This document shows, one piece after another, positions 47,457 through 59,620 of a stretch of 64,000 nucleotides of DNA. How positions within the stretch are numbered: the stretch's first letter is position 1; each line of letters opens with the position of its first letter. Source of the DNA: an uncultured bacterium (GTDB taxonomy: Bacteria > CAZDME01 > JAYEMH01); NCBI GenBank assembly GCA_964506075.1, contig CAZDKO010000002.1:16-64015 (forward strand), written 5' to 3'. The position numbers and the translations under genes are program-made. Under the pieces are notes generated by a model. It did not search any database, had not been told where the DNA came from, and worked only from the letters and a program-made list of their open reading frames with translations.

Positions 47457-48361
47457 TTGTGGGCTCAATTGCTCTTGATTCGGTAAAAACGCCTTTTGGG
47501 GAAGCCGAGGAAGTTTTAGGCGGTTCAGCTACTTATGCTTCTTACGCCGCCAGTTTTTTTACCACGCCGTATCTGGTGGGAGTAGTGGGAAAAGATTTTC
47601 CCGAGAAACACATTGAGCTTTTACGGGGAAAATCAATTGATTTAAAAGGGCTGATGGTTGAAGAGGGGAAGACTTTTCGCTGGAAGGGATATTATGATTT
47701 TGATTTAAACAGCGCCAAAACCCTTTCCACCTGTTTAAACGTGTTTCAGAATTTTCGTCCAAGGCTACCCGAGGAATACCGTAAAATCAAAAATGTTTTT
47801 CTGGGTAATATTGACCCTGATGTCCAGCTTGAGGTTATCGACCAGGTGGAAAGCCCGGAGCTGGTCGTCGGAGACACGATGAATTTCTGGATTAGCAATA
47901 AAAAAGAGGCGCTTCTAAAGGTTTTAAAAAAGATAAACGTTTTAGTTATCAATGACGCCGAGGCCAGGCAGTTATCGGAGGAGCCCAATTTAATTAAGGC
48001 CGGAAAAAATTTGCTTTCTTTCGGCCCGGAATATATAATTATCAAAAAAGGGGAGCACGGGGCGTTACTTTTTTCCGATTCGGTTTTCTTTTCCCTGCCG
48101 GCTTATCCTCTGGAATCTTTGTATGACCCGACCGGAGCCGGGGACAGTTTTGCCGGCGGCTTTATCGGTTATTTATCCGGCATAGATAATTTTAACGGCT
48201 CTGAATTTAAAAAAGCCCTGGTTTACGGGAGCGTGGTCGCTTCCTTTGACGTTGAGGATTTCAGTCTTAACCGTCTGGTAAAACTGAATAAAGAAGATAT
48301 AGACCGGCGGTATAAGGAATTTGTAAATATTTCGCATTTTGAAAATTTCAAGCGGGATTAA
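47444..48361 (+). CDS. PfkB-family carbohydrate/nucleoside kinase
   Basis: Start re-picked to ATG 47444 (MAVLIVGSIALD). GGSATYAS and DPTGAGDSFAGGF are present. The last 10 nt overlap tRNA-Gly. Confidence 0.8.
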   Translation: MAVLIVGSIALDSVKTPFGEAEEVLGGSATYASYAASFFTTPYLVGVVGKDFPEKHIELLRGKSIDLKGLMVEEGKTFRWKGYYDFDLNSAKTLSTCLNVFQNFRPRLPEEYRKIKNVFLGNIDPDVQLEVIDQVESPELVVGDTMNFWISNKKEALLKVLKKINVLVINDAEARQLSEEPNLIKAGKNLLSFGPEYIIIKKGEHGALLFSDSVFFSLPAYPLESLYDPTGAGDSFAGGFIGYLSGIDNFNGSEFKKALVYGSVVASFDVEDFSLNRLVKLNKEDIDRRYKEFVNISHFENFKRD

Positions 48362-48426
48362 CTCAGCGGTAGAGTGCAACCTTCCCAAGGTTGAGGCCAC
48401 GGGTTCGAATCCCGTATCCCGCTCCA
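48352..48426 (+). tRNA. tRNA-Gly (anticodon CCC), CCA encoded
   Basis: GCGGGAT-TA-ACTC...CAACC-TTCCCAA-GGTTG...ACGGGTTCGAATCCCGT-ATCCCGC-TCCA. Confidence 0.9.
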
Positions 48427-48600
48427 GAGTTACGGCTAATAGCGTATGGCGGATAGCCAATAGCACGTGGCAAATAGCGGATAGCACATAGCTGATAGCG
48501 AATAGCAGATGGCTTATGGCAGATGGCGTATAGCCAATAGCAGATGGTTAATTGGTAATTTGTTTTTGCCATCAGCTATCTGCTATAAGCTATTCGCCAA
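48427..48600. repeat. Low-complexity GATAGC/GATGGC/AATAGC word repeat block between tRNA-Gly and tRNA-Ser
   Basis: A run of 6-8-mers (GGCGGATAGCCAATAGCACGTGGCAAATAGCGGATAGC...) ends in a partially complementary tract (GCCATCAGCTATCTGCTATAAGCTATTCGCC). The same words occur at 39195-39240. Confidence 0.7.
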
Positions 48601-48605
48601 AAACC

Positions 48606-48695
48606 GGAGAGGTGCCAGAGCGGTCGATCGGAGCTGCCTGCTAAGCAGTTGAACCCGAAAGGGTTCCCTGGGTTCGAATCCCAGCCTCTCCGCCA
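48606..48695 (+). tRNA. tRNA-Ser (anticodon GCU), long variable arm, CCA encoded
   Basis: GGAGAGG-TG-CCAG...CTGC-CTGCTAA-GCAG, variable arm TTGAACCCGAAAGGGTTCC, then CTGGGTTCGAATCCCAG-CCTCTCC-GCCA. Confidence 0.9.
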
Positions 48696-48721: not shown

Positions 48722-49040
48722 CAGCGGTGGCAGAGAATCGAAAATCGAAAGTCGAGAATAGATAAAAATAGGTTTTCGATTCGGTCAATTTTCGATTATC
48801 GATTTTCAAGCTTTGTATTTCTTTAAGCAAAGGGTAAATTTTCAGCAGCGGTGGCAGAGCAATCGAGAATCGAAAATCGAAATTAGATTTAAGAAGATTC
48901 TTGATTGCGGTCAATTCTCGATTTTCTATTTTCGGAAAAATCTAAGAATAACAGAGAATCGAAAATCGAGATTCGAAATTAGATAAAAGGAGATTTTTGA
49001 TTCGGTCAATTTTCGATTATCGATTTTCAATTTTCAAAAT
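48722..49040. repeat. Three tandem ~100-124-bp units of an (AATCGA)n-rich imperfect palindrome
   Basis: The units start near 48731, 48855 and 48952. Each has a left arm (A)GAATCGAAAATCGA(A/G)A.TCGA.AAT.AGAT and a right arm TTGATTCGGTCAATTTTCGATTATCGATTTTC. Units 1 and 2 are each preceded by CAGCGGTGGCAGAG (48722, 48846). Confidence 0.8.
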
Positions 49041-49041
49041 C

Positions 49042-49386
49042 ATGGCATTTATATTCGAGAAATTAGACGTTTACAGAAAGGCCGTTGATTTCGCGGACAA
49101 AATCTGCGACTTAACTAAAGATTTTCAAAAGGGAAATTATTATTTGGCTGACCAGTTAAATCGTGCATCATTGTCAATATCCACGAATATAGCAGAAGGC
49201 AACGGCAAGTATCATAAAGCAGATAGAGTTAATTTCTTTCGAATAGCGCGCGGTTCGGCATTTGAGTGCGTACCAATTTTAGAAATATGCAAAAGGAAGA
49301 AACTCATTGCTGAAGAGTTAAATGCATCTTTAAAGAAGGAAGTGGAAAACATCTGCAAAATGTTATCTGGTCTTATAAACACCTAA
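49042..49386 (+). CDS. Four-helix-bundle protein (23S rRNA intervening-sequence protein / Avd-like family)
   Basis: Start re-picked to ATG 49042. MAFIFEKLDVYRKAVDF...QLNRASLSISTNIAEGNGKYHKADRVNFFRIARGSAFE matches this family's hallmark pattern. Confidence 0.85.
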   Translation: MAFIFEKLDVYRKAVDFADKICDLTKDFQKGNYYLADQLNRASLSISTNIAEGNGKYHKADRVNFFRIARGSAFECVPILEICKRKKLIAEELNASLKKEVENICKMLSGLINT

Positions 49387-50775: not shown

Positions 50776-50983
50776 AAGGTTGTTTTTTATGATGATAATA
50801 AAAAATACCTTAACGGATTCGTTAATCATGGTGGCGGAAAAATAATTAAAACCTTCGCTGAAAATGGCGGAGGTTTCTATTTATTGTATGGTATGAAAAA
50901 GTGGTCTGACCCCTTTTTTATTAGATGTTAAGATTGAAAGGTTGATATTAGATTAAATATACGATATTGAGGAGGAAAATACC

Positions 50984-52261
50984 ATGGCCATAAGAGAAAA
51001 AGTAGAGTCACTTGAAAAAGTAAGTGAGGCAACCGATCGCACACTACGTTTATGGCTCAGAGGCAGAAAGCAAGACTTGCGTGTTTACAGGATCCCGATA
51101 AAGCACCTCTATTTTAATATTGAGAATGGCCGATACGCAGACAAGATGATACAGCTTAGGGCTGATAATCCAGGCGTAGATATTGACCCAAAATCAGATG
51201 TGTGGAGAGATGAAATCTATAAAATGTTAAAAGGTGAATATGTAGGAACAATCGAAGCTGAAGGGACAGAACGTGACGAAGTTGACTTCGATAGATTAAG
51301 CGAAGACATAAGAAAAAGAGAGCAACTGAATCCAGGCATAGTTCTTGCAGATGGCGGTGTAATAGATGGAAATAGGCGATTAGCTGTTCTTATGTCTTTA
51401 GATGATGAAAGATTTAGCCACTTTGATGGTGTTATTCTTCCAGATGATATTTCTGCAGAAGATAGGTGGAGAATTGAAGTAGGGGTCCAGCTTGGAAAAG
51501 ACCAACAATTAGATTATTCCCCTATTAATAAATTGTTGAAAATTAGGCAAGGTTTGCTTATGTATAAATCCATGAAATTACCTAGCGGAAAATCTGCAGA
51601 AGATATGGTAGCTGAGGCCCTATATGGTGTATCAAAAAAAGAGGTTTCAGAGAGTATAGATCTAATTAACCTGATCGATGAATATCTAGATTTTTTCAAA
51701 TGCAAAGGTCAATATCATCAGGTAGCAGATAAAAACGAACGGTTTATTGAAGCCCTTGGCAGTTTAAAAGCGGCAGAAGGAAAACTAGCTCCTCACGAGA
51801 TAGCAAAGCTAAAAGTTCAATTATTCGTTATTGTAAAAGAAGGCATTATGTCCAACTGGGAGATTAGGGACGTAAAACGTGCATTAGGGGGAATTCAAAA
51901 AGCTAGGGGACGGAAAAGTACGCTAATCCAAAAAGCAGTAGGGCATTTGATTGCTCATACAACAGATCCTAAAACAGTTCGAGATGCCTATACAGATAAT
52001 ACCCAAGGTAAGATAGTATTAAAATCTAAAACAATATGTCGAGAATTTAAAGATATTTTTGAAGCAGAAAAAGATGCTAATCAACCTCTTACATTAGCGA
52101 AAGATGCTCGTGCGAAATTAGATACATTAAAAGAATCTCTAAAAGATTTTAAGAAACCTGAAGATGCACTTGCCATAGTAGAAGAACTATCCATTATGAA
52201 AAAGCTTATAAGAGCGTGTCTAAGCACTGTTAAATTGCCGAAGCATAAAGTTAAGGGGTAA
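50984..52261 (+). CDS. ParB/Srx-fold (DUF262/DndB-like) N-terminal domain protein, first gene of candidate defence cassette
   Basis: Strong SD (GAGGAGG). YRIPIKHLYFNIENGRY and LNPGIVLADGGVIDGNRRLAVL resemble the ParB/Srx signature (xDGxxR). The C-terminal ~250 aa are helical and unrecognised. Confidence 0.55.
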   Translation: MAIREKVESLEKVSEATDRTLRLWLRGRKQDLRVYRIPIKHLYFNIENGRYADKMIQLRADNPGVDIDPKSDVWRDEIYKMLKGEYVGTIEAEGTERDEVDFDRLSEDIRKREQLNPGIVLADGGVIDGNRRLAVLMSLDDERFSHFDGVILPDDISAEDRWRIEVGVQLGKDQQLDYSPINKLLKIRQGLLMYKSMKLPSGKSAEDMVAEALYGVSKKEVSESIDLINLIDEYLDFFKCKGQYHQVADKNERFIEALGSLKAAEGKLAPHEIAKLKVQLFVIVKEGIMSNWEIRDVKRALGGIQKARGRKSTLIQKAVGHLIAHTTDPKTVRDAYTDNTQGKIVLKSKTICREFKDIFEAEKDANQPLTLAKDARAKLDTLKESLKDFKKPEDALAIVEELSIMKKLIRACLSTVKLPKHKVKG

Positions 52262-52278
52262 CCCATAGGTATTAGTGT

Positions 52279-54201
52279 ATGGCAATACGATTGTATTTTA
52301 CTCAAGAAGGTAATTTAGAGATAAATTCGTTAGAACAAAATAATTTTTCTATAGAAGAGGAAGGAACTGTTTTAGTTCTGCCTTTTAGGACTATTGAAAA
52401 AGACCGTCACCATATTATCATAAACCCAGGGGAGAAACTAAATGAGACGATAGAATACATATTATCCGAACTTAAAAATAAAAATTATATAGTTGAACTT
52501 GATTCTTATTTAAAAAAGTATTGGGATAATTATATTCTCGAGAAAAATAAAATAAGAGACATAAGAAGGGAAAAAACAAGATTAAGCGTTGACAATAAAG
52601 CGATAAGGCCTATTTTTAAATACACACGTCAACCATTTTCTCATCAGCTTAGAGGAATACGTCATGCGTTAAATTTGGAAAATGCAGCTAATTTTTCTGT
52701 ACCAGGAAGCGGGAAAACGCAAGTTGCTTTAGGTATTTTTATGTATTTGAAAACAAAGAAAGTTGTGGAGAAATGTTTTGTTATAGGACCCGCAAGTTGT
52801 TTCGAACCATGGGAAAATGAAGCAAGAGAGTGTCTACAGCGGCCAATTACGGTGTTGCGTTGGTCAGGGAGTGTTACGAAGAGGCGCAGAATAGGCAGTC
52901 TTGCCAGAAACAGTGATTTAATACTGATAACATATCAAACAGCTTGTAATGATTTTTTATTATTAGAACAGATACTCAGACGATATAAAACTCTTCTGGT
53001 ATTAGATGAATCACATCATGTTAAGAATCCAAATGGATCACGCGCAAAAGCTATTTTACGTCTTTCCCCATTTTCTACTAAAAGATTAATTCTTACAGGC
53101 ACACCGGCTCCACATTCTCTATTTGATGTATGGACACAATTTTCTTTTCTTTGGCCATCTCAACAACTTATAAAGGATTTTTATTCATTTAAAAGAGAAT
53201 TAGAATCACACAAGAACCCAGCAGTCAAACTGAAACGGGATCTTAATCCATATTTCATTCGAACAACAAAAAAGGAATTAGGACTTCCCGAAATTAAATG
53301 GGATATTGATTTTATAAACAAAAAAGATATTCCCTCTGAACAGAGAAAAATTATTGACCTTTTAGAGCTAAAGACATTAACAGAGGCTAGGAAATTTGGT
53401 CTTTCAGATGTAGATATGGATGTCTTGTATAAATGGAGAATAGCAAGAATTATTAGATTATTACAAGCTGCATCAAACCCAGCTCTTTTGTTAAAAAGAA
53501 TAGATTGCTGTAACATTGAGAAGAGCCTGGATGTCGATATGTCAGATCTGGTAAATTATGCGAATGTATTTTTAAGTCTAAAAAAATTACCTATAAAGAT
53601 AGATATCGTTATAAAAAAGACAAAAGCACTCGTAGAGTCAGGAAAAAAGGTTATAGTCTGGTCATGGTTTGTAGAAAACTTATGTCTTTTGGAAAAGCTG
53701 TTAAATAAATATAATCCGCTAATGATATATGGTGAAATTAAACCCTACGAAGAAAAAGAAGATTCAGCATTAGAAGAAAGTAGAGAACGGAATATACGCG
53801 ATTTTAAAAAGAAAAAGGACAGACCTATATTGTTGGCCAATCCGGCTGCCTGTGCAGAATCAATATCTCTACACAAACAGTGCCAGGATGCAATATATCT
53901 TGATAGAAATTTTAATTGCGGACAATTTTTACAATCAATGGACCGTATTCATAGGGTTGGAATGCCGCGCGACACAACAGCTCTATATCACATTCCTATC
54001 ATTGATTGCGCTATTGAGCGTAGCATAGATAAACGCCTCAAAAAACGCCAGCAAGATCTTTACACAGTTCTTAACGATCCAATGCCAGTTTTAGGTGTTG
54101 ATGATGACGCCTGGCTTGCAGATTCGACTGGTGAGCTAAACGATGCGTTTGATGATGTAATAAAAGAAATAAAAAATGAGAAAAGAAAACACTCTATATA
54201 A
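52279..54201 (+). CDS. SNF2-family (SF2) helicase/translocase
   Basis: Motif I VPGSGKTQ, motif II LVLDESHHVKN, motif III LILTGTPAP and motif VI QSMDRIHRVGM. The N-terminal ~120 aa are unassigned. Confidence 0.85.
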   Translation: MAIRLYFTQEGNLEINSLEQNNFSIEEEGTVLVLPFRTIEKDRHHIIINPGEKLNETIEYILSELKNKNYIVELDSYLKKYWDNYILEKNKIRDIRREKTRLSVDNKAIRPIFKYTRQPFSHQLRGIRHALNLENAANFSVPGSGKTQVALGIFMYLKTKKVVEKCFVIGPASCFEPWENEARECLQRPITVLRWSGSVTKRRRIGSLARNSDLILITYQTACNDFLLLEQILRRYKTLLVLDESHHVKNPNGSRAKAILRLSPFSTKRLILTGTPAPHSLFDVWTQFSFLWPSQQLIKDFYSFKRELESHKNPAVKLKRDLNPYFIRTTKKELGLPEIKWDIDFINKKDIPSEQRKIIDLLELKTLTEARKFGLSDVDMDVLYKWRIARIIRLLQAASNPALLLKRIDCCNIEKSLDVDMSDLVNYANVFLSLKKLPIKIDIVIKKTKALVESGKKVIVWSWFVENLCLLEKLLNKYNPLMIYGEIKPYEEKEDSALEESRERNIRDFKKKKDRPILLANPAACAESISLHKQCQDAIYLDRNFNCGQFLQSMDRIHRVGMPRDTTALYHIPIIDCAIERSIDKRLKKRQQDLYTVLNDPMPVLGVDDDAWLADSTGELNDAFDDVIKEIKNEKRKHSI

Positions 54202-55183
54202 TTTAATAAAATCCAATGGAAATTTAGGAGAGATAGCGCTTGTTTTAAGACCACTACAGAAGGGGGCGCTTGAAGACTGGGTTCTTAAAGTTTGCATTTA
54301 TAAGCAAGCTGGGGTGAGCACTAGAATACCTGAGCCAGATACACTAATAAATGCTTCAGCAGTTTTAGGGCTGGTAGAAATCAGAAAAAGGAAGAAAAAT
54401 AGAGTAGTGTCTCTTTCGAGGCTTGGCAAAAATATTGTTAGATTAAAAACTGTAGAAAAAGATAGACTGACAAAACAACAAGGAAAGATCATTTTTTCTA
54501 TTGCACTAGAAAAAATGGATATTATAGATGATGTGTTATCTGTAATAAATATGTTTAACATTTATCAAAATGGAGATTTTAGGATTAGTAGTAATGATAA
54601 CCGAATTAATTATCTTGAGGACCAAATTCTCCGCCTATTCCAGCAGTTAAAAATTGCTACCTATCAAAACGGAAATATAATCGTTGAAAAAAAAGACAAA
54701 GAATGGTTAATTGCTTTAATCTCATCCATACGTGAGACTAGCATAGATGAGCTCTTAGACCTACTGACTTTGAAAAGGAAGTATGGAATAATGGCAGAGG
54801 ATTTTGTATTGCGGAAAGAGAAAGAAAGACTGGTTAAGATTGGGCGCATGGATCTTGCTAGTTTAGTTAAGAAAATAAGTGACCAGAATATTTCTGCGGG
54901 ATATGACATTTTGTCCTTTGATGGATGCAAATCGTCTCTTATTCCAGATAGATTTATTGAAGTAAAGGGAAGCTCAAATAATCAGTTAGTTTTTTATATA
55001 TCAAAAAATGAAATACAAATAGCACAAAAAATGCAAGATAAATATTGGATATATTGTGTATTGGGCGTAGGAAATCCAACTAATCAAAAAATAGAAATAA
55101 TAAATAATCCATATAAAAGAATTTTTCAGGAAAAGCAGTTTAACATAGAACCCATTTTGTGGCGGATAAGCGAAAAAAGATAA
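54176..55183 (+). CDS. DUF3883-type PD-(D/E)xK nuclease-like protein with N-terminal putative wHTH/recognition region
   Basis: The C-terminal GYDILSF...DRFIEVKGS...FYISKNEIQIAQ...YWIYCV matches the DUF3883 restriction-endonuclease-like pattern (D...EVK). The start overlaps the SNF2 gene by 26 nt. Confidence 0.6.
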   Translation: MRKENTLYNLIKSNGNLGEIALVLRPLQKGALEDWVLKVCIYKQAGVSTRIPEPDTLINASAVLGLVEIRKRKKNRVVSLSRLGKNIVRLKTVEKDRLTKQQGKIIFSIALEKMDIIDDVLSVINMFNIYQNGDFRISSNDNRINYLEDQILRLFQQLKIATYQNGNIIVEKKDKEWLIALISSIRETSIDELLDLLTLKRKYGIMAEDFVLRKEKERLVKIGRMDLASLVKKISDQNISAGYDILSFDGCKSSLIPDRFIEVKGSSNNQLVFYISKNEIQIAQKMQDKYWIYCVLGVGNPTNQKIEIINNPYKRIFQEKQFNIEPILWRISEKR

Positions 55184-55208
55184 TGAGCAACCATTAATTA
55201 TCAGAGAG

Positions 55209-56045
55209 ATGAATATACAAAAGAGTTTTAATAAGATTATATGCGGTGACTGTCTGGATGTTTTAAAAGATTTTCCAAATAGTTGCATAGATTTAATAAT
55301 AACATCCCCGCCTTATGCAAATAGCCGGAAGGCTGATTATGGAGGTATACAGCCATCCGAATATGTTGCTTGGTTATTACCGCGCACCGAACAATTTATG
55401 CGAGTATTAAAGCCGAGCGGTACCTTTATATTAAATATAAAAGAGAAGGTGGTGGATGGCGAAAGGCATACGTATGCAATTGATTTAATTCTTAAAATGC
55501 GTGAACAGGGTTGGCGTTGGACAGAAGAATTTATTTGGCACAAAAAGAATTCTTTCCCTGGAAAATGGCCAAATCGTTTCAGAGATGCTTGGGAAAGATG
55601 TTTGCAGTTCAATAAACGCAAACAATTTAAAATGTACCAAGATGCAGTAAAAATTCCTATTGGCGAATGGGCAAATTATAGACTTAAGAATTTGAGTGAT
55701 AGTGATAATATAAGATTGGACTCGCATTCAAAAAGCGGCTTTGGCAGACGCGTCGCTAATTGGGCCGGCAAAAAAAAGGTATATCCAACAAATGTGTTAC
55801 ATATAGCAACAGAATGTGCTAATAGAAGTCATAGTGCCACGTTTCCTATTGGACTACCTACATGGTTTATAAAATTATTTACTAAAAAGGGAGATGTTGT
55901 GCTAGATCCTTTTATCGGTTCTGGTACAAGTGCCGTGGCTTCTAGGAAACTTAGCAGAAAGTATATTGGTATTGATATTGAAAAAAAGTTTTGTGAATTA
56001 GCTCAAAAAAATATAAATAAAAATTGTTCCAAGGAAAATTACTAA
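55209..56045 (+). CDS. Beta-class DNA amino-methyltransferase (N4-C or N6-A; motif IV SPPY)
   Basis: Motif IV IITSPPYAN lies near the N-terminus and motif I VLDPFIGSGTSAVA near the C-terminus. HSATFP is also present. This order is typical of PF01555-type MTases. Confidence 0.85.
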   Translation: MNIQKSFNKIICGDCLDVLKDFPNSCIDLIITSPPYANSRKADYGGIQPSEYVAWLLPRTEQFMRVLKPSGTFILNIKEKVVDGERHTYAIDLILKMREQGWRWTEEFIWHKKNSFPGKWPNRFRDAWERCLQFNKRKQFKMYQDAVKIPIGEWANYRLKNLSDSDNIRLDSHSKSGFGRRVANWAGKKKVYPTNVLHIATECANRSHSATFPIGLPTWFIKLFTKKGDVVLDPFIGSGTSAVASRKLSRKYIGIDIEKKFCELAQKNINKNCSKENY

Positions 56046-56092
56046 TCGCCTTCATCGTAAGAATATGTATCTAAAAGAATCTTAATAATAGT

Positions 56093-56139
56093 GACAGCTA
56101 GCAGTTTTTAAAATAGCCGCTATCCCTGATAAAGCCAGA
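56093..56139 (+). promoter_or_regulatory. Conserved ~48-bp upstream motif, copy 1 (partner at 58252-58299)
   Basis: GACAGCTAGCAGTTTTTAAAATAGCCGCTATCCCTGATAAAGCCAGA versus GACAGCTACCGGTTTTAAAAATAGCTACCATACCCTGATAAAGCGAGA, roughly four-fifths identical by eye. Confidence 0.55.
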
Positions 56140-56208
56140 AAGTAATTGGCATAAGGTTGTTTGGAGACCAAGAGGGAGGACAAGAAAATCACTCTGATCC
56201 CATTTCTG

Positions 56209-56258
56209 CAATATTGTTGGGTGTTCACCAAGAGAATTATTAACGTGCGACAATATTG
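56209..56258. promoter_or_regulatory. Pair of palindromic CAATATTG boxes (candidate operator) upstream of the 56337 gene
   Basis: GCAATATTGTTGG (box at 56209-56216) and GACAATATTGTGG (box at 56251-56258). The 8-bp perfect palindromes lie 42 bp apart centre to centre. Confidence 0.4.
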
Positions 56259-56336
56259 TGGAAAAACTAGACCATTATTTAGCAGAATATATTCGATGAA
56301 TATCAAAAACAATGTTTTCGAAAAGGTTATTAATGT

Positions 56337-57206
56337 ATGCGCGCCTCTAAATATATAGCTATAGGGATAGTTTTTTTACTAGCAGCCGTTGTGCAGGGGT
56401 CGCTTAGATATATTACGCCGGAATTAATTAGTACATTCCAGAATAATCCTATACTAATAAATGTTTTGGCGGGACTGTCTCATAATAAATTCTATACATC
56501 AGTAATAGCCAGCACAATAATGGCGTCTCAATTATTATTGGGGATTATTTTATATCCGCGAGATTATATAAAAAAGCGAAAAACAAAAATTCTGAAACGC
56601 ATACATTCAAATTTATTTAATGATGATACCAATCACAGGGTAACGTTATTTAAAGAGGTAGGTTATATTCACGCATTGTGGGAATATGTGTGGACATTAT
56701 TTTATCACTTAAGGCCGAAATATTTCTTTAGGTTTTTGCTTCATTTAAAAAAATTCCCATGCCCGGCAAATTATTTAATCATAGATATCAGAGAGGGACG
56801 CTTTAAAAAATCACGGACAATGTTCAAAGTAGAAGAAAACATTTTGGGCAACTGCGAAGGAATTGTCGGAATGATAAGATGCCAAAAAGCTATGAGCCTT
56901 TGCGTTTCCGATTTGCCAGATATAACAAATATAGACCTCGATAGTATAGATTTATCAAATATGCGAAAGAACGAAACTAAAACAGTTCGAGAGTATATGG
57001 AAAAGGGTTACATAAAAAACATAGAATCGTTAAAAATTCTACATTTAAAATCTCGACATTTTTTAGGTTCGGTAATTTATAAAACCGAAGGCGTGCCATG
57101 CGCAATGCTTTTAGTAGATAGTACATCAGAATCTAATCCATTTACAGAAAAGGTGGTGGATAAGTTTACTGTATATAGTGAATTTTTAACTGACTTGATA
57201 TCATAA
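56337..57206 (+). CDS. Membrane protein: two N-terminal TM helices plus GAF-like cytoplasmic domain (tentative)
   Basis: TM segments YIAIGIVFLLAAVVQGSL and SVIASTIMASQLLLGIILY. The C-terminal pattern (RVTLFKEVG...GIVGM...HFLGSVIY..EGVPCAMLLVDS...F) loosely resembles GAF folds. No confident family match. Confidence 0.35.
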   Translation: MRASKYIAIGIVFLLAAVVQGSLRYITPELISTFQNNPILINVLAGLSHNKFYTSVIASTIMASQLLLGIILYPRDYIKKRKTKILKRIHSNLFNDDTNHRVTLFKEVGYIHALWEYVWTLFYHLRPKYFFRFLLHLKKFPCPANYLIIDIREGRFKKSRTMFKVEENILGNCEGIVGMIRCQKAMSLCVSDLPDITNIDLDSIDLSNMRKNETKTVREYMEKGYIKNIESLKILHLKSRHFLGSVIYKTEGVPCAMLLVDSTSESNPFTEKVVDKFTVYSEFLTDLIS

Positions 57207-57220
57207 TAAAGGAGATAGAA

Positions 57221-57643
57221 ATGACCACTATTAACATTGACCAGAATAGATACAAACAAGCTATACCATTTTTTGATTCGAGAGGAATAAAAATAACCAT
57301 GTATTTACCACCGATTTTTATTCCCCAATCAGTAAACGGTAGCTATATATCAGAGGACGACTCTTTTGAAATAAAATTTAACTATAAAGAAATAGAAGTA
57401 GCAATAACGTTATTTGATAATGATCACGCCCGTTTTATGGTAGGAAAACATACAAAAAAACCGTTAGCCCTGCATATAAAAAATGTAAAGAAACAAGGTG
57501 TTACATTTATTACTTTAGAACAAATTTTTAATGATGCAATAAGCAAAGTAGATAAACCTATAGAAAAGGGTAATATGGAAGTAGCAAAATCTGTTGTTAC
57601 AGATAATGTTGAAAGTTTTGCAAGTACAGTCCCTAGTATATAA
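57221..57643 (+). CDS. Hypothetical protein (140 aa)
   Basis: AAGGAG SD sits 6 nt upstream, with a 14-nt gap to the preceding gene. No recognisable motif. Confidence 0.4.
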   Translation: MTTINIDQNRYKQAIPFFDSRGIKITMYLPPIFIPQSVNGSYISEDDSFEIKFNYKEIEVAITLFDNDHARFMVGKHTKKPLALHIKNVKKQGVTFITLEQIFNDAISKVDKPIEKGNMEVAKSVVTDNVESFASTVPSI

Positions 57644-57661
57644 AATTATTTCGAGGATCAA

Positions 57662-58027
57662 ATGAAAGATGTCACAAGAAGAGCCGTTGCGTTTATTGCA
57701 GGGTGCTTAATAAGCGGGGAAAAAGCGTCTGCGATATATGATTATTCTGCGGCAAAATATTTCAATTTTAGTGGTAAAGTATCCGAAAAGGATATATCCC
57801 TTTATGATCATGAGCTAAATTGTAACATTATTGCGGGATTCGGAACTGTAAATTCTTATTCACTATACCATTACGGCACTAAGAAACACATTGCCCTTGA
57901 AATAAAACAAGCAAATTTTACAGGATACGACTACGATTCGGGGAAACATTTCCAAGGTTCTGTAGCTAATACAGCTATAAATATATATGATTATGAAACA
58001 GGACAGTATTATAATTTCTCGATATAG
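57662..58027 (+). CDS. Hypothetical protein made of ~5 degenerate ~20-aa YDY-type beta-hairpin repeats; weak lipobox
   Basis: Repeats: IYDYSAAKYFNFSG / LYDHELNCNIIAGFG / LYHYGTKKHIALEI / GYDYDSGKHFQGSV / IYDYETGQYYNFSI. The N-terminal RRAVAFIAGC resembles a short lipoprotein signal. Confidence 0.4.
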   Translation: MKDVTRRAVAFIAGCLISGEKASAIYDYSAAKYFNFSGKVSEKDISLYDHELNCNIIAGFGTVNSYSLYHYGTKKHIALEIKQANFTGYDYDSGKHFQGSVANTAINIYDYETGQYYNFSI

Positions 58028-58063
58028 TATCAGGTCCGTCAAAATATTCTTTTTCAGCAAAAA

Positions 58064-58098
58064 GGTAAAATTTTGGTGCGGGAAAATTTTGCCTTTTT
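58064..58098 (+). terminator. Rho-independent terminator ending the three-gene module
   Basis: GGTAAAATTTT-GGTGCGGG-AAAATTTTGCC stem-loop (one mismatch) followed by TTTTT. Confidence 0.55.
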
Positions 58099-58158
58099 GT
58101 GAGGTGTTTTCACGTTGAACAAAAAAGGGTCAGAATCGTTTTTGATTAAGTATTGTCT

Positions 58159-58230
58159 CCGTAATTTTGTTTATTCCCATAGTTTTATTTTATAAAACTA
58201 AACATGGGAATAAACAAAATAAACACGGGG
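58159..58230. repeat. Family-H palindromic element, long near-perfect hairpin
   Basis: TTTTGTTTATTCCCAT and ATGGGAATAAACAAAA form a perfect 16-bp inverted repeat. The inner pair is AGTTTTAT-TTT-ATAAAACT and the outer pair CCGT/ACGG. Confidence 0.75.
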
Positions 58231-58251
58231 ATGGCGCTAAAAAGCGCAAGG

Positions 58252-58299
58252 GACAGCTACCGGTTTTAAAAATAGCTACCATACCCTGATAAAGCGAGA
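58252..58299 (+). promoter_or_regulatory. Conserved ~48-bp upstream motif, copy 2, ending 1 nt before the PIF1-like ATG
   Basis: See 56093-56139. The GATAAA hexamer ends 7 nt before the ATG at 58301 and no SD is visible, so the transcript may be leaderless. Confidence 0.5.
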
Positions 58300-58300
58300 T

Positions 58301-59620
58301 ATGAGAAAAAGAAATAGACTTCTTAATGAAGCAAATATTTTGCCTGACAACCTGGAATTAAATGATGAATTCGTAGACACTTTTAATTTAATAGAAAATA
58401 CGGATGACAGCATTTTTATTACCGGTAAGGCCGGTACCGGTAAATCAACCCTCCTTAAATATTTCAAAAAGAACACCGCTAAAAATGTCGCTATTTTAGC
58501 GCCGACCGGTATTGCGGCCATAAATGTTGGCGGCCAGACAATCCACTCTTTTTTCAGATTTCCGCCTCGTTTAATCCAGAAGGATAATATTCGCAGAAGA
58601 CGTAACAGTATAATCATTCAAAGACTCGACACAGTAATAATCGATGAAGTTTCTATGGTGCGCGCCGACGTTATGGACGGGATTGACTATGCGCTTAGGA
58701 TTGGTCGTGATGAGATGAAGCTGCCATTCGGTGGCGTCCAGATGGTATTTTTGGGAGATTTATTTCAGCTTCCCCCGGTGGTAGAGAAGGAAGCGCAAGA
58801 CATTTTTGACCAGCGCTACGATAGTCCGTATTTTTTTAAAGCCAAAGTTTTCAATAAACTGAACCTGCGATATGTGGAGTTGAATAAAAATTACCGCCAA
58901 TCAGATACCCGATTTGTTGATTTGTTGAATAAAATCCGGAATAAGACTCAAGGGGATGATGACCTTGAGCTGCTGAATGAGAGAGTGACAAAAATAATCC
59001 CGGGAGATTATAATCATCGTGTTTTTTTGACGGCTACCAATAACCGCGCCAATGCGATAAATGAAGAAAAATTAGCCGGTCTACTTGACCAGGAATATAA
59101 ATATGAAGCCGATATTACCGGCAAATTTGAAGAATCTGCTTATCCAACGGAGGATTGTTTGAGGCTTAAGAAGGGAGCACAGATTATTTTGATAAAAAAT
59201 GACCCTGATAAAAGATGGGTAAATGGCACCATTGCGGAGATTGCGGCGTTATCCCCGGGCACTATAAAAGTTTCTATAAATGGAAACATTCATGAGGTGG
59301 CAAAGGCAACCTGGGAAAAGATTAAATACGAATATAATTTAGACGAAGATAAAATTGAAGAAAAGATAATCGGTACCTTTGAACAATATCCGATAAAACT
59401 AGCCTGGGCAATTACCATCCACAAGAGCCAGGGCCAGACTTTTGACAATATTATTATAGATTTAGGAGCCGGCGCTTTTAGTCATGGCCAGGTATACGTT
59501 GGTCTTAGTCGCTGCACTTCGCTGGAAGGTATTATTTTAAAAAGGCCGGTAATTGAGAGCGACATTATTTTTGATGAAAGAGTCTACGAGTTTAGAAACA
59601 GATTTCTGAATTTAATATAA
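58301..59620 (+). CDS. PIF1/RecD-like SF1B DNA helicase
   Basis: Walker A ITGKAGTGKST, Walker B VIIDEVSMV, GDLFQLPPV, NYRQ, TIHKSQGQTFD and YVGLSRCTSLEGI. Confidence 0.85.
   Translation: MRKRNRLLNEANILPDNLELNDEFVDTFNLIENTDDSIFITGKAGTGKSTLLKYFKKNTAKNVAILAPTGIAAINVGGQTIHSFFRFPPRLIQKDNIRRRRNSIIIQRLDTVIIDEVSMVRADVMDGIDYALRIGRDEMKLPFGGVQMVFLGDLFQLPPVVEKEAQDIFDQRYDSPYFFKAKVFNKLNLRYVELNKNYRQSDTRFVDLLNKIRNKTQGDDDLELLNERVTKIIPGDYNHRVFLTATNNRANAINEEKLAGLLDQEYKYEADITGKFEESAYPTEDCLRLKKGAQIILIKNDPDKRWVNGTIAEIAALSPGTIKVSINGNIHEVAKATWEKIKYEYNLDEDKIEEKIIGTFEQYPIKLAWAITIHKSQGQTFDNIIIDLGAGAFSHGQVYVGLSRCTSLEGIILKRPVIESDIIFDERVYEFRNRFLNLI

Follow-up and report, generated by a model that had tools for sequence, protein, structure and literature searches.

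A ParB/Srx-fold protein, an SNF2 motor, a NOV_C nuclease and a DNA methyltransferase encoded side by side: a conserved, apparently undescribed restriction-modification-like module

Four genes sit tightly packed on the forward strand of a contig from an uncultured bacterium (GenBank assembly GCA_964506075.1, contig CAZDKO010000002.1, positions 16 to 64,015; this whole 64,000-nt stretch is referred to as the window, and coordinates refer to it unless a different locus is named), where they span positions 50984-56045 and encode, in this order, a ParB/Srx-fold protein (open reading frame 1, ORF1), an SNF2-family superfamily 2 (SF2) ATPase (ORF2), a NOV_C/DUF3883 nuclease (ORF3) and a beta-class amino-methyltransferase (ORF4). 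The cassette is a conserved and widespread restriction-modification (RM)-like module that has apparently not been described before: what is new is the core of a ParB-fold protein and an SNF2 motor, together with the unannotated family to which ORF1 belongs, whereas all of the domains and the RM logic are already familiar. The original prediction, made from the sequence alone, had recognized four co-directional ORFs in close succession, and the ORF list reproduces both its coordinates and its spacing (a 17-nt gap, a 26-nt overlap and a 25-nt gap), with every motif it quoted being located at a defined residue. As the ORFs are long, their family matches strong and their synteny conserved, the cassette is not a chance assemblage. 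A GAGGAGG Shine-Dalgarno sequence lies 5' of the ORF1 ATG, and the GC content of 0.33-0.35 over 52-58 kb, vs. 0.40-0.47 in most of the window, bears out the AT-rich island that had been suspected here.

Products of the four genes

Searches of Pfam, NCBIfam, PADLOC v2, PHROGs and the PDB sequences with either the single ORF1 sequence or a 40-sequence profile returned no significant match, and the 198 matches of a word-indexed search included zero functional names, any that were named at all being a “hypothetical protein”. The family is nevertheless large, as an exhaustive search gathered 1,549 clusters at 50% identity with E <= 1e-3, 965 of which had E <= 1e-10. Its assignment to the ParB/Srx type, which had been proposed from the motifs YRIPIKHLYFNIENGRY (at residue 35) and GGVIDGNRRLAVL (at residue 124), is backed by the AlphaFold (AF2) model of ORF1 (predicted local distance difference test score, pLDDT, 86.5; predicted template modelling score, pTM, 0.79), with which Foldseek retrieved ParB/Srx folds from two structure collections: the top three PDB matches were chains of the pNOB8 ParB N-domain 5k5d (probability 0.99-1.00, E 6e-3 to 1.4e-2), sulfiredoxin 6ky4 was also retrieved (probability 0.75), and the named matches among the top 50 in BFVD, a set of predicted viral structures, were almost all Spo0J, ParB, ParB-sulfiredoxin or DdrB-like (E down to 2e-4). 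Residues 34-170 make up the conserved core, the most conserved segment of the protein (pairwise identity 0.64), and are followed by a helical C-terminal region; the invariant residues of the 40-sequence alignment include G49-R50-Y51-x-D53, D123, G129-N130-R131-R132, E165-x-G167-x-Q169 and N182/K186, of which the GxxR-type arginine motif (G129-N130-R131-R132) is modelled at the junction between strand 125-128 and helix 130-138, where the helix begins. Exactly at this DGNRR site, several family members show recurrent, sub-threshold matches to ddrB-ParB (E 0.002-0.09). Judging by fold and motif, not by any curated sequence model, ORF1 appears to be a divergent member of the ParB/Srx superfamily, and is predicted to act as a nucleoside triphosphate (NTP)-binding switch or a DNA clamp partnering the SNF2 motor.

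Some plasmid members of the ORF1 family carry Prokaryotic Genome Annotation Pipeline (PGAP) labels, namely “ParB/RepB/Spo0J family partition protein” or “ParB N-terminal domain-containing protein”, and one such PGAP-named member is securely part of the family (hhalign probability 99.4 against the family alignment). As an NCBIfam search of the plasmid relatives that PGAP calls ParB gave no match, the name does not come from an NCBIfam hidden Markov model. Overall, ORF1 relatives were found on 71 PLSDB plasmids, 63 of them conjugative or mobilizable. One relative, P0132 (525 aa), has an N-terminal Mrr_N winged-helix domain (3.2e-24) fused to an ORF1-type core, a natural fusion pointing to a role of the ORF1 component in DNA recognition. 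At two other loci (L015, 7782-8402; L087, 6782-7402) the ORF1 homolog is a fragment with ~130 matched residues in a ~200-aa open frame and with no SNF2 or nuclease gene adjoining; these are probably decayed copies.

The full SNF2 motif set that had been read in ORF2 holds up, with VPGSGKTQ at residue 141 (GSGKT 143-147), LVLDESHHVKN at 240 (DESH 243-246), LTGTPAP at 272 and QSMDRIHRVGM at 552, and with Pfam SNF2-rel_dom (1.9e-21, 76.8 bits vs. a cut-off of 24.9) and Helicase_C (3.6e-07, 30.9 bits vs. 23.5) both above their cut-offs, alongside ResIII (1.3e-09). By its sequence, ORF2 is a complete SNF2-family ATPase with Walker A, DExH, motif VI and both lobes, and it is predicted to translocate on double-stranded DNA; its N-terminal ~115 aa are without domain assignment. 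The best PADLOC matches are ZorD (6.8e-25) and DpdE (4.8e-14), yet the scores against the NCBIfam equivalog models fall far below the respective cut-offs (31.9 bits vs. 1500 for ZorD, 32.4 vs. 610 for DrmD and 14.5 vs. 500 for DpdE), and no member of the family passes the curated cut-offs of these three. With equivalog scores of 14-32 bits where 500-1500 would be needed, ORF2 is taken to be an SNF2 motor of its own clade.

ORF3 had been expected to end in a DUF3883/PD-(D/E)xK-like core, and its C-terminus indeed matches Pfam NOV_C (PF13020, formerly DUF3883) well above the gathering score (1e-18, 67.6 bits vs. a cut-off of 22.1), a family that lies within the PD-(D/E)xK superfamily (PMC3424549). 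The motifs GYDILSF, RFIEVKGS and YWIYCV are found at residues 242, 259 and 290, and, as the catalytic residues are invariant across 34 homologs (E208, E215, G242-Y243-D244 and E262-V263-K264), the nuclease is predicted to be active. Ahead of it, the AF2 model (pLDDT 85) places two helix-and-hairpin modules (residues ~7-90 and 100-170) and a long linker helix (190-221), and Foldseek matched the two modules to the winged-helix structures of Roquin ROQ, TubR, PadR, RosR and SelB in the PDB, with probability up to 1.00 and E of only ~1e-2, so that the N-terminus is, as modelled, a putative tandem winged helix. This is also the part of ORF3 that varies most, with a pairwise identity of 0.26-0.31 vs. 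0.46 in the nuclease core. The overlap of the ORF3 start with the end of ORF2 is not peculiar to this window, and its recurrence between the nuclease and SNF2 genes of other loci suggests coupled translation.

ORF4 matches Pfam N6_N4_Mtase (PF01555; 5e-44, 151.3 bits vs. a cut-off of 26.7) and PADLOC MTase_II (2.4e-52), and its motif IV (SPPY, 33-36) precedes motif I (FIGSG, 235-239), all of which identifies it, at the sequence level, as a beta-class N6/N4 amino-methyltransferase. The SPPY motif suggests N4-methylcytosine (m4C), and ORF4 thus probably lays a self-protecting m4C mark on DNA; the original prediction, too, had taken this motif as a hint of N4-cytosine methylation, but the chemistry is not fixed across the family.

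Conservation of the unit and its surroundings

Whether the four genes recur elsewhere was one of the tests proposed along with the original prediction, and they turned out to be syntenic in many genomes. The comparison covered 106 loci, drawn from contigs with ORF1 or ORF3 homologs, GTDB species representatives (11 loci), a metagenome scan (80 loci) and four plasmid records; all of their stop-to-stop ORFs with a length of 60 aa or more were scored, using profiles and queries that represent each component, and near-identical copies were removed. An intact ORF1 homolog is directly followed on the same strand by an SNF2 gene at all 66 loci with enough downstream sequence. Next after SNF2 comes a nuclease gene of the NOV_C or MutH-like kind at 59 of 61, the two exceptions being a plasmid locus broken by transposases and a locus whose SNF2 protein has a PLD nuclease domain fused to it. 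In 55 of the 56 determinable loci the trio is abutted by a methyltransferase, for the most part no more than tens of bases away (determinable loci being those that either showed a methyltransferase or had full coverage of both flanks, a conditional denominator that drops loci with incomplete flanks and no methyltransferase), and the methyltransferase is co-directional with the trio in 48 of the 55. An independent start from distant ORF3 homologs (26-31% identity) retrieved the identical architecture, the gene upstream being a relative of ORF1 (hhalign probability 99.7 and 99.1).

The named genomes belong to phyla that include Thermodesulfobacteriota, Acidobacteriota, Planctomycetota, Chloroflexota, Pseudomonadota, Bacillota and Actinomycetota (e.g., members of Thermodesulfobacteriota, Vicinamibacterales, Solibacter, Pirellulales, Dehalococcoidia, Chloroflexia, Rhodobacterales and Methyloceanibacter), and the plasmid hosts include Lactiplantibacillus, Enterococcus, Exiguobacterium and Streptomyces. 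The distribution is patchy, with 11 loci among 185,579 GTDB species representatives; a scan of IMG/VR retrieved no relative, and phage records with weak matches number only four. As the close relatives L019 and L020 keep the four genes in flanks unrelated to those of the window (AbiE, toxin-antitoxin pairs and a STAND NTPase) and without its downstream genes, the four genes are the mobile unit, and in the unrelated flanks of close relatives AbiE, toxin-antitoxin, Fic and STAND genes abound, as do integrases and transposases. An extension of the unit to the three downstream ORFs (56337-58027) and a Pif1-like helicase was considered and rejected, since none of these lies beside the cassette in L019 or L020.

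The invariant core of the system is the ORF1-SNF2 pair, around which both the nuclease and the methyltransferase have been non-orthologously replaced in some relatives. The nuclease is either NOV_C or MutH-like, or else takes the form of a PLD domain that is fused to SNF2, and the methyltransferases are of several kinds: a small beta-class enzyme (SPPY in 12 of 12 checked) is found at 25 loci, upstream or downstream and on either strand; a large enzyme of 670-730 aa, with motif I near the N-terminus and DPPY near residue 480 in all three checked, at 27 loci (19 upstream, 8 downstream); a D12/Dam-class enzyme at two loci, upstream; and a Dcm C5 enzyme with Vsr at one plasmid locus, upstream on the opposite strand. 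As adjacency is retained despite this displacement, a protective methyl mark and DNA cutting would seem to be required, with the chemistry being left free.

Several individual loci depart from the common plan. In L017 (7507-7986; Rhodobacterales) and L018 (7195-7656; Methyloceanibacter), a gene for a BglII-like restriction endonuclease stands between the SPPY methyltransferase and the ORF1 homolog, i.e., a complete Type II pair is joined to the ORF1-SNF2-NOV_C trio. One subclade (L021, 9039-9728; L022, 9015-9797) has a fifth gene after NOV_C, the 229-260-aa products of which are 29% identical between the two copies and gave no family match. The Lactiplantibacillus plantarum plasmid CP096858.1 (L023, 2070-9320) encodes Dcm, an ORF1-like protein, a PLD-nuclease and SNF2 fusion, a MutH-like endonuclease and Vsr; another plasmid variant (L026, 8142-10715) also has the PLD and SNF2 fusion, and a related pair of ORF1-like and SNF2 genes is present on 52 Enterococcus plasmid records.

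As for the surroundings of the cassette in the window itself (Table 1), the statement of the original prediction that it lies “next to tRNA genes” needs qualifying: there is a tRNA pair upstream, but it is ~2.3 kb away and three small genes intervene. An Rfam scan of 48-60 kb found these two tRNAs and nothing else. The idea of a tRNA-integrated island with direct repeats was rejected, there being no downstream repeat of the tRNA 3' end, and no integrase-like ORF was recognized in the ORF list of 44-64 kb, most of which was not profile-searched. The hairpin 5' of ORF1 probably, on weak evidence, ends the upstream transcription unit and thereby sets the 5' boundary of the cassette; promoter and terminator scans of the region gave site numbers not above shuffle expectation.

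Directly after tRNA-Gly comes a 7-nt periodic array, and beyond tRNA-Ser there are seven copies (0 expected by chance) of a triple-heptamer element, (AATCGAR)x3, whose A/T-rich tail is conserved. The three small genes that separate tRNA-Ser from ORF1 are each bracketed by such copies, and the final copy is ~195 nt 5' of ORF1; the element could be an operator or a mark of the boundaries of gene cassettes. Close behind the tRNA genes lies a gene for a four-helix-bundle protein of the 23S rRNA-intervening-sequence type (PF05635, 3.6e-31). Downstream of the cassette, three ORFs with no library match are followed by a strong hairpin and by a gene for a Pif1/RecD-like superfamily 1 (SF1) helicase (Pfam PIF1 1.8e-30; PADLOC candidate PDC-S68 1.5e-22). 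These genes share the low-GC stretch of the cassette yet are unlinked to it in close relatives, and may be a second, separate defence locus.

Table 1. Features of the cassette and its neighbourhood in the window
Feature	Position	Strand	Product length	Remark
tRNA-Gly	48352-48426			~2.3 kb 5' of cassette
Periodic array	48434-48552			7-nt period (ATAGCAA-like; also periods 14, 21); before tRNA-Ser
tRNA-Ser	48606-48695			~2.3 kb 5' of cassette
(AATCGAR)x3 element	48736-50789			Copies confined to this 2-kb stretch
23S rRNA-intervening-sequence-type protein gene	48997-49386			
Terminator-like hairpin	50849-50876	+		12-pair stem; ~107 nt 5' of ORF1 start codon; consensus scan only
ORF1	50984-52261	+	425 aa	ParB/Srx-fold protein (fold and motif)
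ORF2	52279-54201	+	640 aa	SNF2-family SF2 ATPase
ORF3	54176-55183	+	335 aa	Putative tandem winged helix and NOV_C/DUF3883 nuclease
ORF4	55209-56045	+	278 aa	Beta-class amino-methyltransferase
Downstream ORF	56337-57206			No library match
Downstream ORF	57221-57643			No library match
Downstream ORF	57662-58027			No library match
Strong hairpin	58057-58100			
Pif1/RecD-like SF1 helicase gene	58301-59620			Possible second defence locus, 56337-59620

Proposed mechanism and competing explanations

The reading we favour, and consider somewhat better than an even bet, is that the cassette is a four-component, methylation-gated, NTP-dependent RM-like defence system. ORF4 would methylate host DNA as a self mark, and ORF2 and ORF3, probably co-translated since their genes overlap, would work as a motor and nuclease split between two proteins, cutting or nicking incoming DNA that is unmethylated; for reading the site, the variable winged helices of ORF3 are the best candidate. 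ORF1, as the obligate partner of the motor, would in this scheme use the arginine pocket that is conserved in it (G49-R50-Y51 and G129-N130-R131-R132) to bind a nucleotide, and would bind DNA and license or load the SNF2-nuclease pair, either in the manner of the ParB-fold NTPase domains that gate nucleases in GmrSD, BrxU and SspE, or in that of the cytidine triphosphate (CTP)-gated ParB clamps. ParB-fold NTPase domains have been described as sensor or gating modules in defence (PMC12065111, PMC10853773), ParB-DUF262 domains being NTPase sensor modules in GmrSD, SspE, DndB and NsnA (PMC12065111), and in HmaA the DUF3883 domain, to which an SNF2 helicase is fused, acts as a Mn-dependent nickase without which there is no defence against T4 (PMC11232893). 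The original prediction of a restriction module split into translocase and nuclease, with a ParB-like component added, was put through each of its computational refutation tests and stands. A more specific version, which we put forward only tentatively and would not bet on as it is worded, sees ORF1 as a nucleotide-gated (possibly CTP-gated) ParB-type clamp on unmethylated DNA that recruits or activates the SNF2 translocase-nuclease, with various nucleases (NOV_C, MutH-like, PLD) and methyltransferases (m4C, N6-methyladenine or C5-methylcytosine) being plugged onto this core.

A number of observations weigh against the favoured reading. The ParB-type models of the curated libraries (ParBc, DUF262, DndB, ddrB-ParB) do not match ORF1 at threshold, the family profile retrieved no ParB from the PDB sequences, and the Foldseek TM-scores of ORF1 are a modest 0.30-0.49, partly because the query was the full-length protein. 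On the side of the methyltransferase, the denominator of its adjacency count is a conditional one, the plasmid locus L024 has no methyltransferase within 7 kb with the queries used, the methyltransferase of L017 and L018 could belong to an ordinary Type II system, and unrelated methyltransferase classes serve one core, so that what would read the methylation status is not obvious. HmaA, moreover, defends without its methyltransferase (PMC11232893).

Most of the latter points lend themselves to a different view, namely that two independent units stand side by side, ORF1-ORF2-ORF3 being a methylation-independent HmaA- or ZorD-like effector with some other trigger, and the methyltransferase either belonging to a separate Type II system or being an orphan. 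HmaA protects against T4 by itself and ~15% of Hma loci are without HmaB (PMC11232893), the position, strand and class of the methyltransferase vary, and both the BglII-like endonuclease beside it in L017 and L018 and the lack of a detected methyltransferase in L024 would be readily accounted for; we still regard this as unlikely, as adjacency and shared direction across distant phyla are far above what co-localization within defence islands would give, and a gene that is displaced non-orthologously yet keeps its place beside the others bears the mark of a required function. Quite improbable, in turn, is a mobile-element establishment or anti-restriction module that protects or processes its own incoming DNA. 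A methylase-helicase dyad and the DdrB-like ParB domains of polyvalent proteins have been proposed to protect element DNA, with SNF2, N6A methylase and ParB being hub domains of such proteins (PMC5512222), and both the largely transmissible plasmids carrying ORF1 relatives and the faint but recurrent DdrB-ParB similarity would be in keeping with it; a catalytically intact nuclease, however, is nearly always present, the proteins are separate instead of polyvalent, most loci are chromosomal, the viral sequences yielded no IMG/VR relative and only the few weak phage matches, and no conjugation or virion genes lie nearby in the gene tables read, bar a gene for a type IV secretion system pilin (L001) and a weak TraG-like match (L005).

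Could the ParB-fold protein instead sense modified foreign DNA and direct the SNF2-nuclease to it, as in Type IV-like modification-dependent restriction? ParB-DUF262 domains have been described as sensors of modified DNA (PMC12065111) and P0132 bears its N-terminal Mrr_N domain, but the adjoining, active-looking methyltransferase would make the host DNA itself a target, and ORF1 matches neither the DUF262 nor the DndB models, which leaves this explanation with very little credence. Slighter still is the chance that the genes have a housekeeping role, in plasmid or chromosome partition or in DNA repair, and are not a conflict system at all: some relatives do go by the “partition protein” name given by PGAP, and SNF2 ATPases act in repair and transcription too, but the canonical ParABS pattern does not apply, as no ParA gene stands beside ORF1 in the window, or beside its homolog in those gene tables of chromosomal and metagenomic loci that were read, and an SNF2 gene always comes after it, and the patchy distribution, low GC, mobile/defence flanks and linkage to a nuclease and a methyltransferase all speak against such a role.

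Should the methylation-gated RM-like reading be confirmed, a widespread defence system would be added to the catalogue, with the ORF1 family present in many phyla and on plasmids; the range of ParB-fold nucleotide switches, which takes in chromosome partition and Type IV enzymes made of a single protein, would be widened to ATP-dependent restriction; and a natural test case would be at hand for one restriction core working with differing methyl chemistries. If the clamp version also proved true, there would be a widespread class of RM systems built on a core of ParB clamp and SNF2 motor. A large family without a model in Pfam, NCBIfam, PADLOC or PHROGs has, in any case, been assigned a fold and a context.

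Comparison with named systems

That no named system fits the cassette, as had been suspected from its gene content, agrees with the searches of PADLOC v2, NCBIfam, Pfam and PHROGs, which do not place it in one, and with the literature, where, subscription-only papers lying outside the coverage, related systems were met (Hma, BR, DISARM/ARMADA, Menshen, Dnd and polyvalent proteins) but no system of a ParB-like protein, SNF2 motor, nuclease and methyltransferase was found described; the pairing of a ParB fold with SNF2 was found in no named system. Profile searches found none of the hallmark proteins DUF499, DUF1156 and PglZ/BrxC, and DrmA/B/C, ArmC/D, ZorA/B/C and DpdA/C are absent from the eight scanned ORFs of 50984-59620.

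The ParB/Srx fold with a (D)GxxR motif, followed by a helical domain and accompanied by a nuclease or DNA-modification module, is what likens ORF1 to GmrSD/BrxU, SspE, DndB, DpdB and Menshen NsnA (PMC12065111, PMC10853773). In contrast to these, it matches no DUF262 or DndB model, its motif reads DGNRR, it is never fused to the nuclease, and it is coupled to an SNF2 motor at every locus where this could be scored, a pairing not found described for those systems. DISARM (DrmD SNF2 and DrmMI), ARMADA II (ArmA and ArmB), Zorya type I (ZorD) and Dpd (DpdE) share the SNF2 ATPase with the cassette, and several of them a methyltransferase, but none has the ORF1 family (PMC13463889), and ARMADA II, like Menshen, differs in composition (PMC13463889, PMC12065111). 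ORF2 falls far short of the DrmD, ZorD and DpdE cut-offs, as set out above; further differences are that ORF2 has only marginal similarity to the DrmA helicase domain of DISARM, that ZorABC matches are missing, and that no transglycosylase of the Dpd kind is found among the same eight ORFs.

With Type III and ISP enzymes, the cassette shares the logic of a methyltransferase that marks self and an SF2 ATPase with a PD-(D/E)xK nuclease that attacks unmarked DNA. The Res helicase of Type III, however, is non-SNF2 and fused to its nuclease, Mod supplies the target recognition and there is no ParB-like subunit, whereas the methyltransferases of the cassette family are stand-alone, interchangeable and of unrelated classes, with the nuclease being a separate gene.

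The known systems closest to the cassette are Hma and the Type-1 BREX-related systems. In Hma (BR type 1), HmaA is an SNF2-DUF3883 fusion, HmaB a DUF1156 methyltransferase and HmaC a DUF499 ATPase (PMC11232893, PMC12839542), so that an SNF2 motor, a DUF3883/NOV_C nuclease, a DNA methyltransferase and one extra NTPase are common to both, and the C-terminus of ORF3 matches that of HmaA (PADLOC 3.3e-08). The motor and nuclease of the cassette are, however, separate proteins, the nuclease with putative winged helices of its own; ORF2 is only marginally like HmaA (E 8e-4 over ~100 residues); and, as neither DUF1156 nor DUF499 matches any cassette protein, the methyltransferase is not of the DUF1156 kind and the fourth component has a predicted ParB fold in place of the DUF499 ATPase. 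In its logic the cassette resembles Type III/ISP and, above all, Hma and the Type-1 BREX-related systems, but it is a member of none of them.

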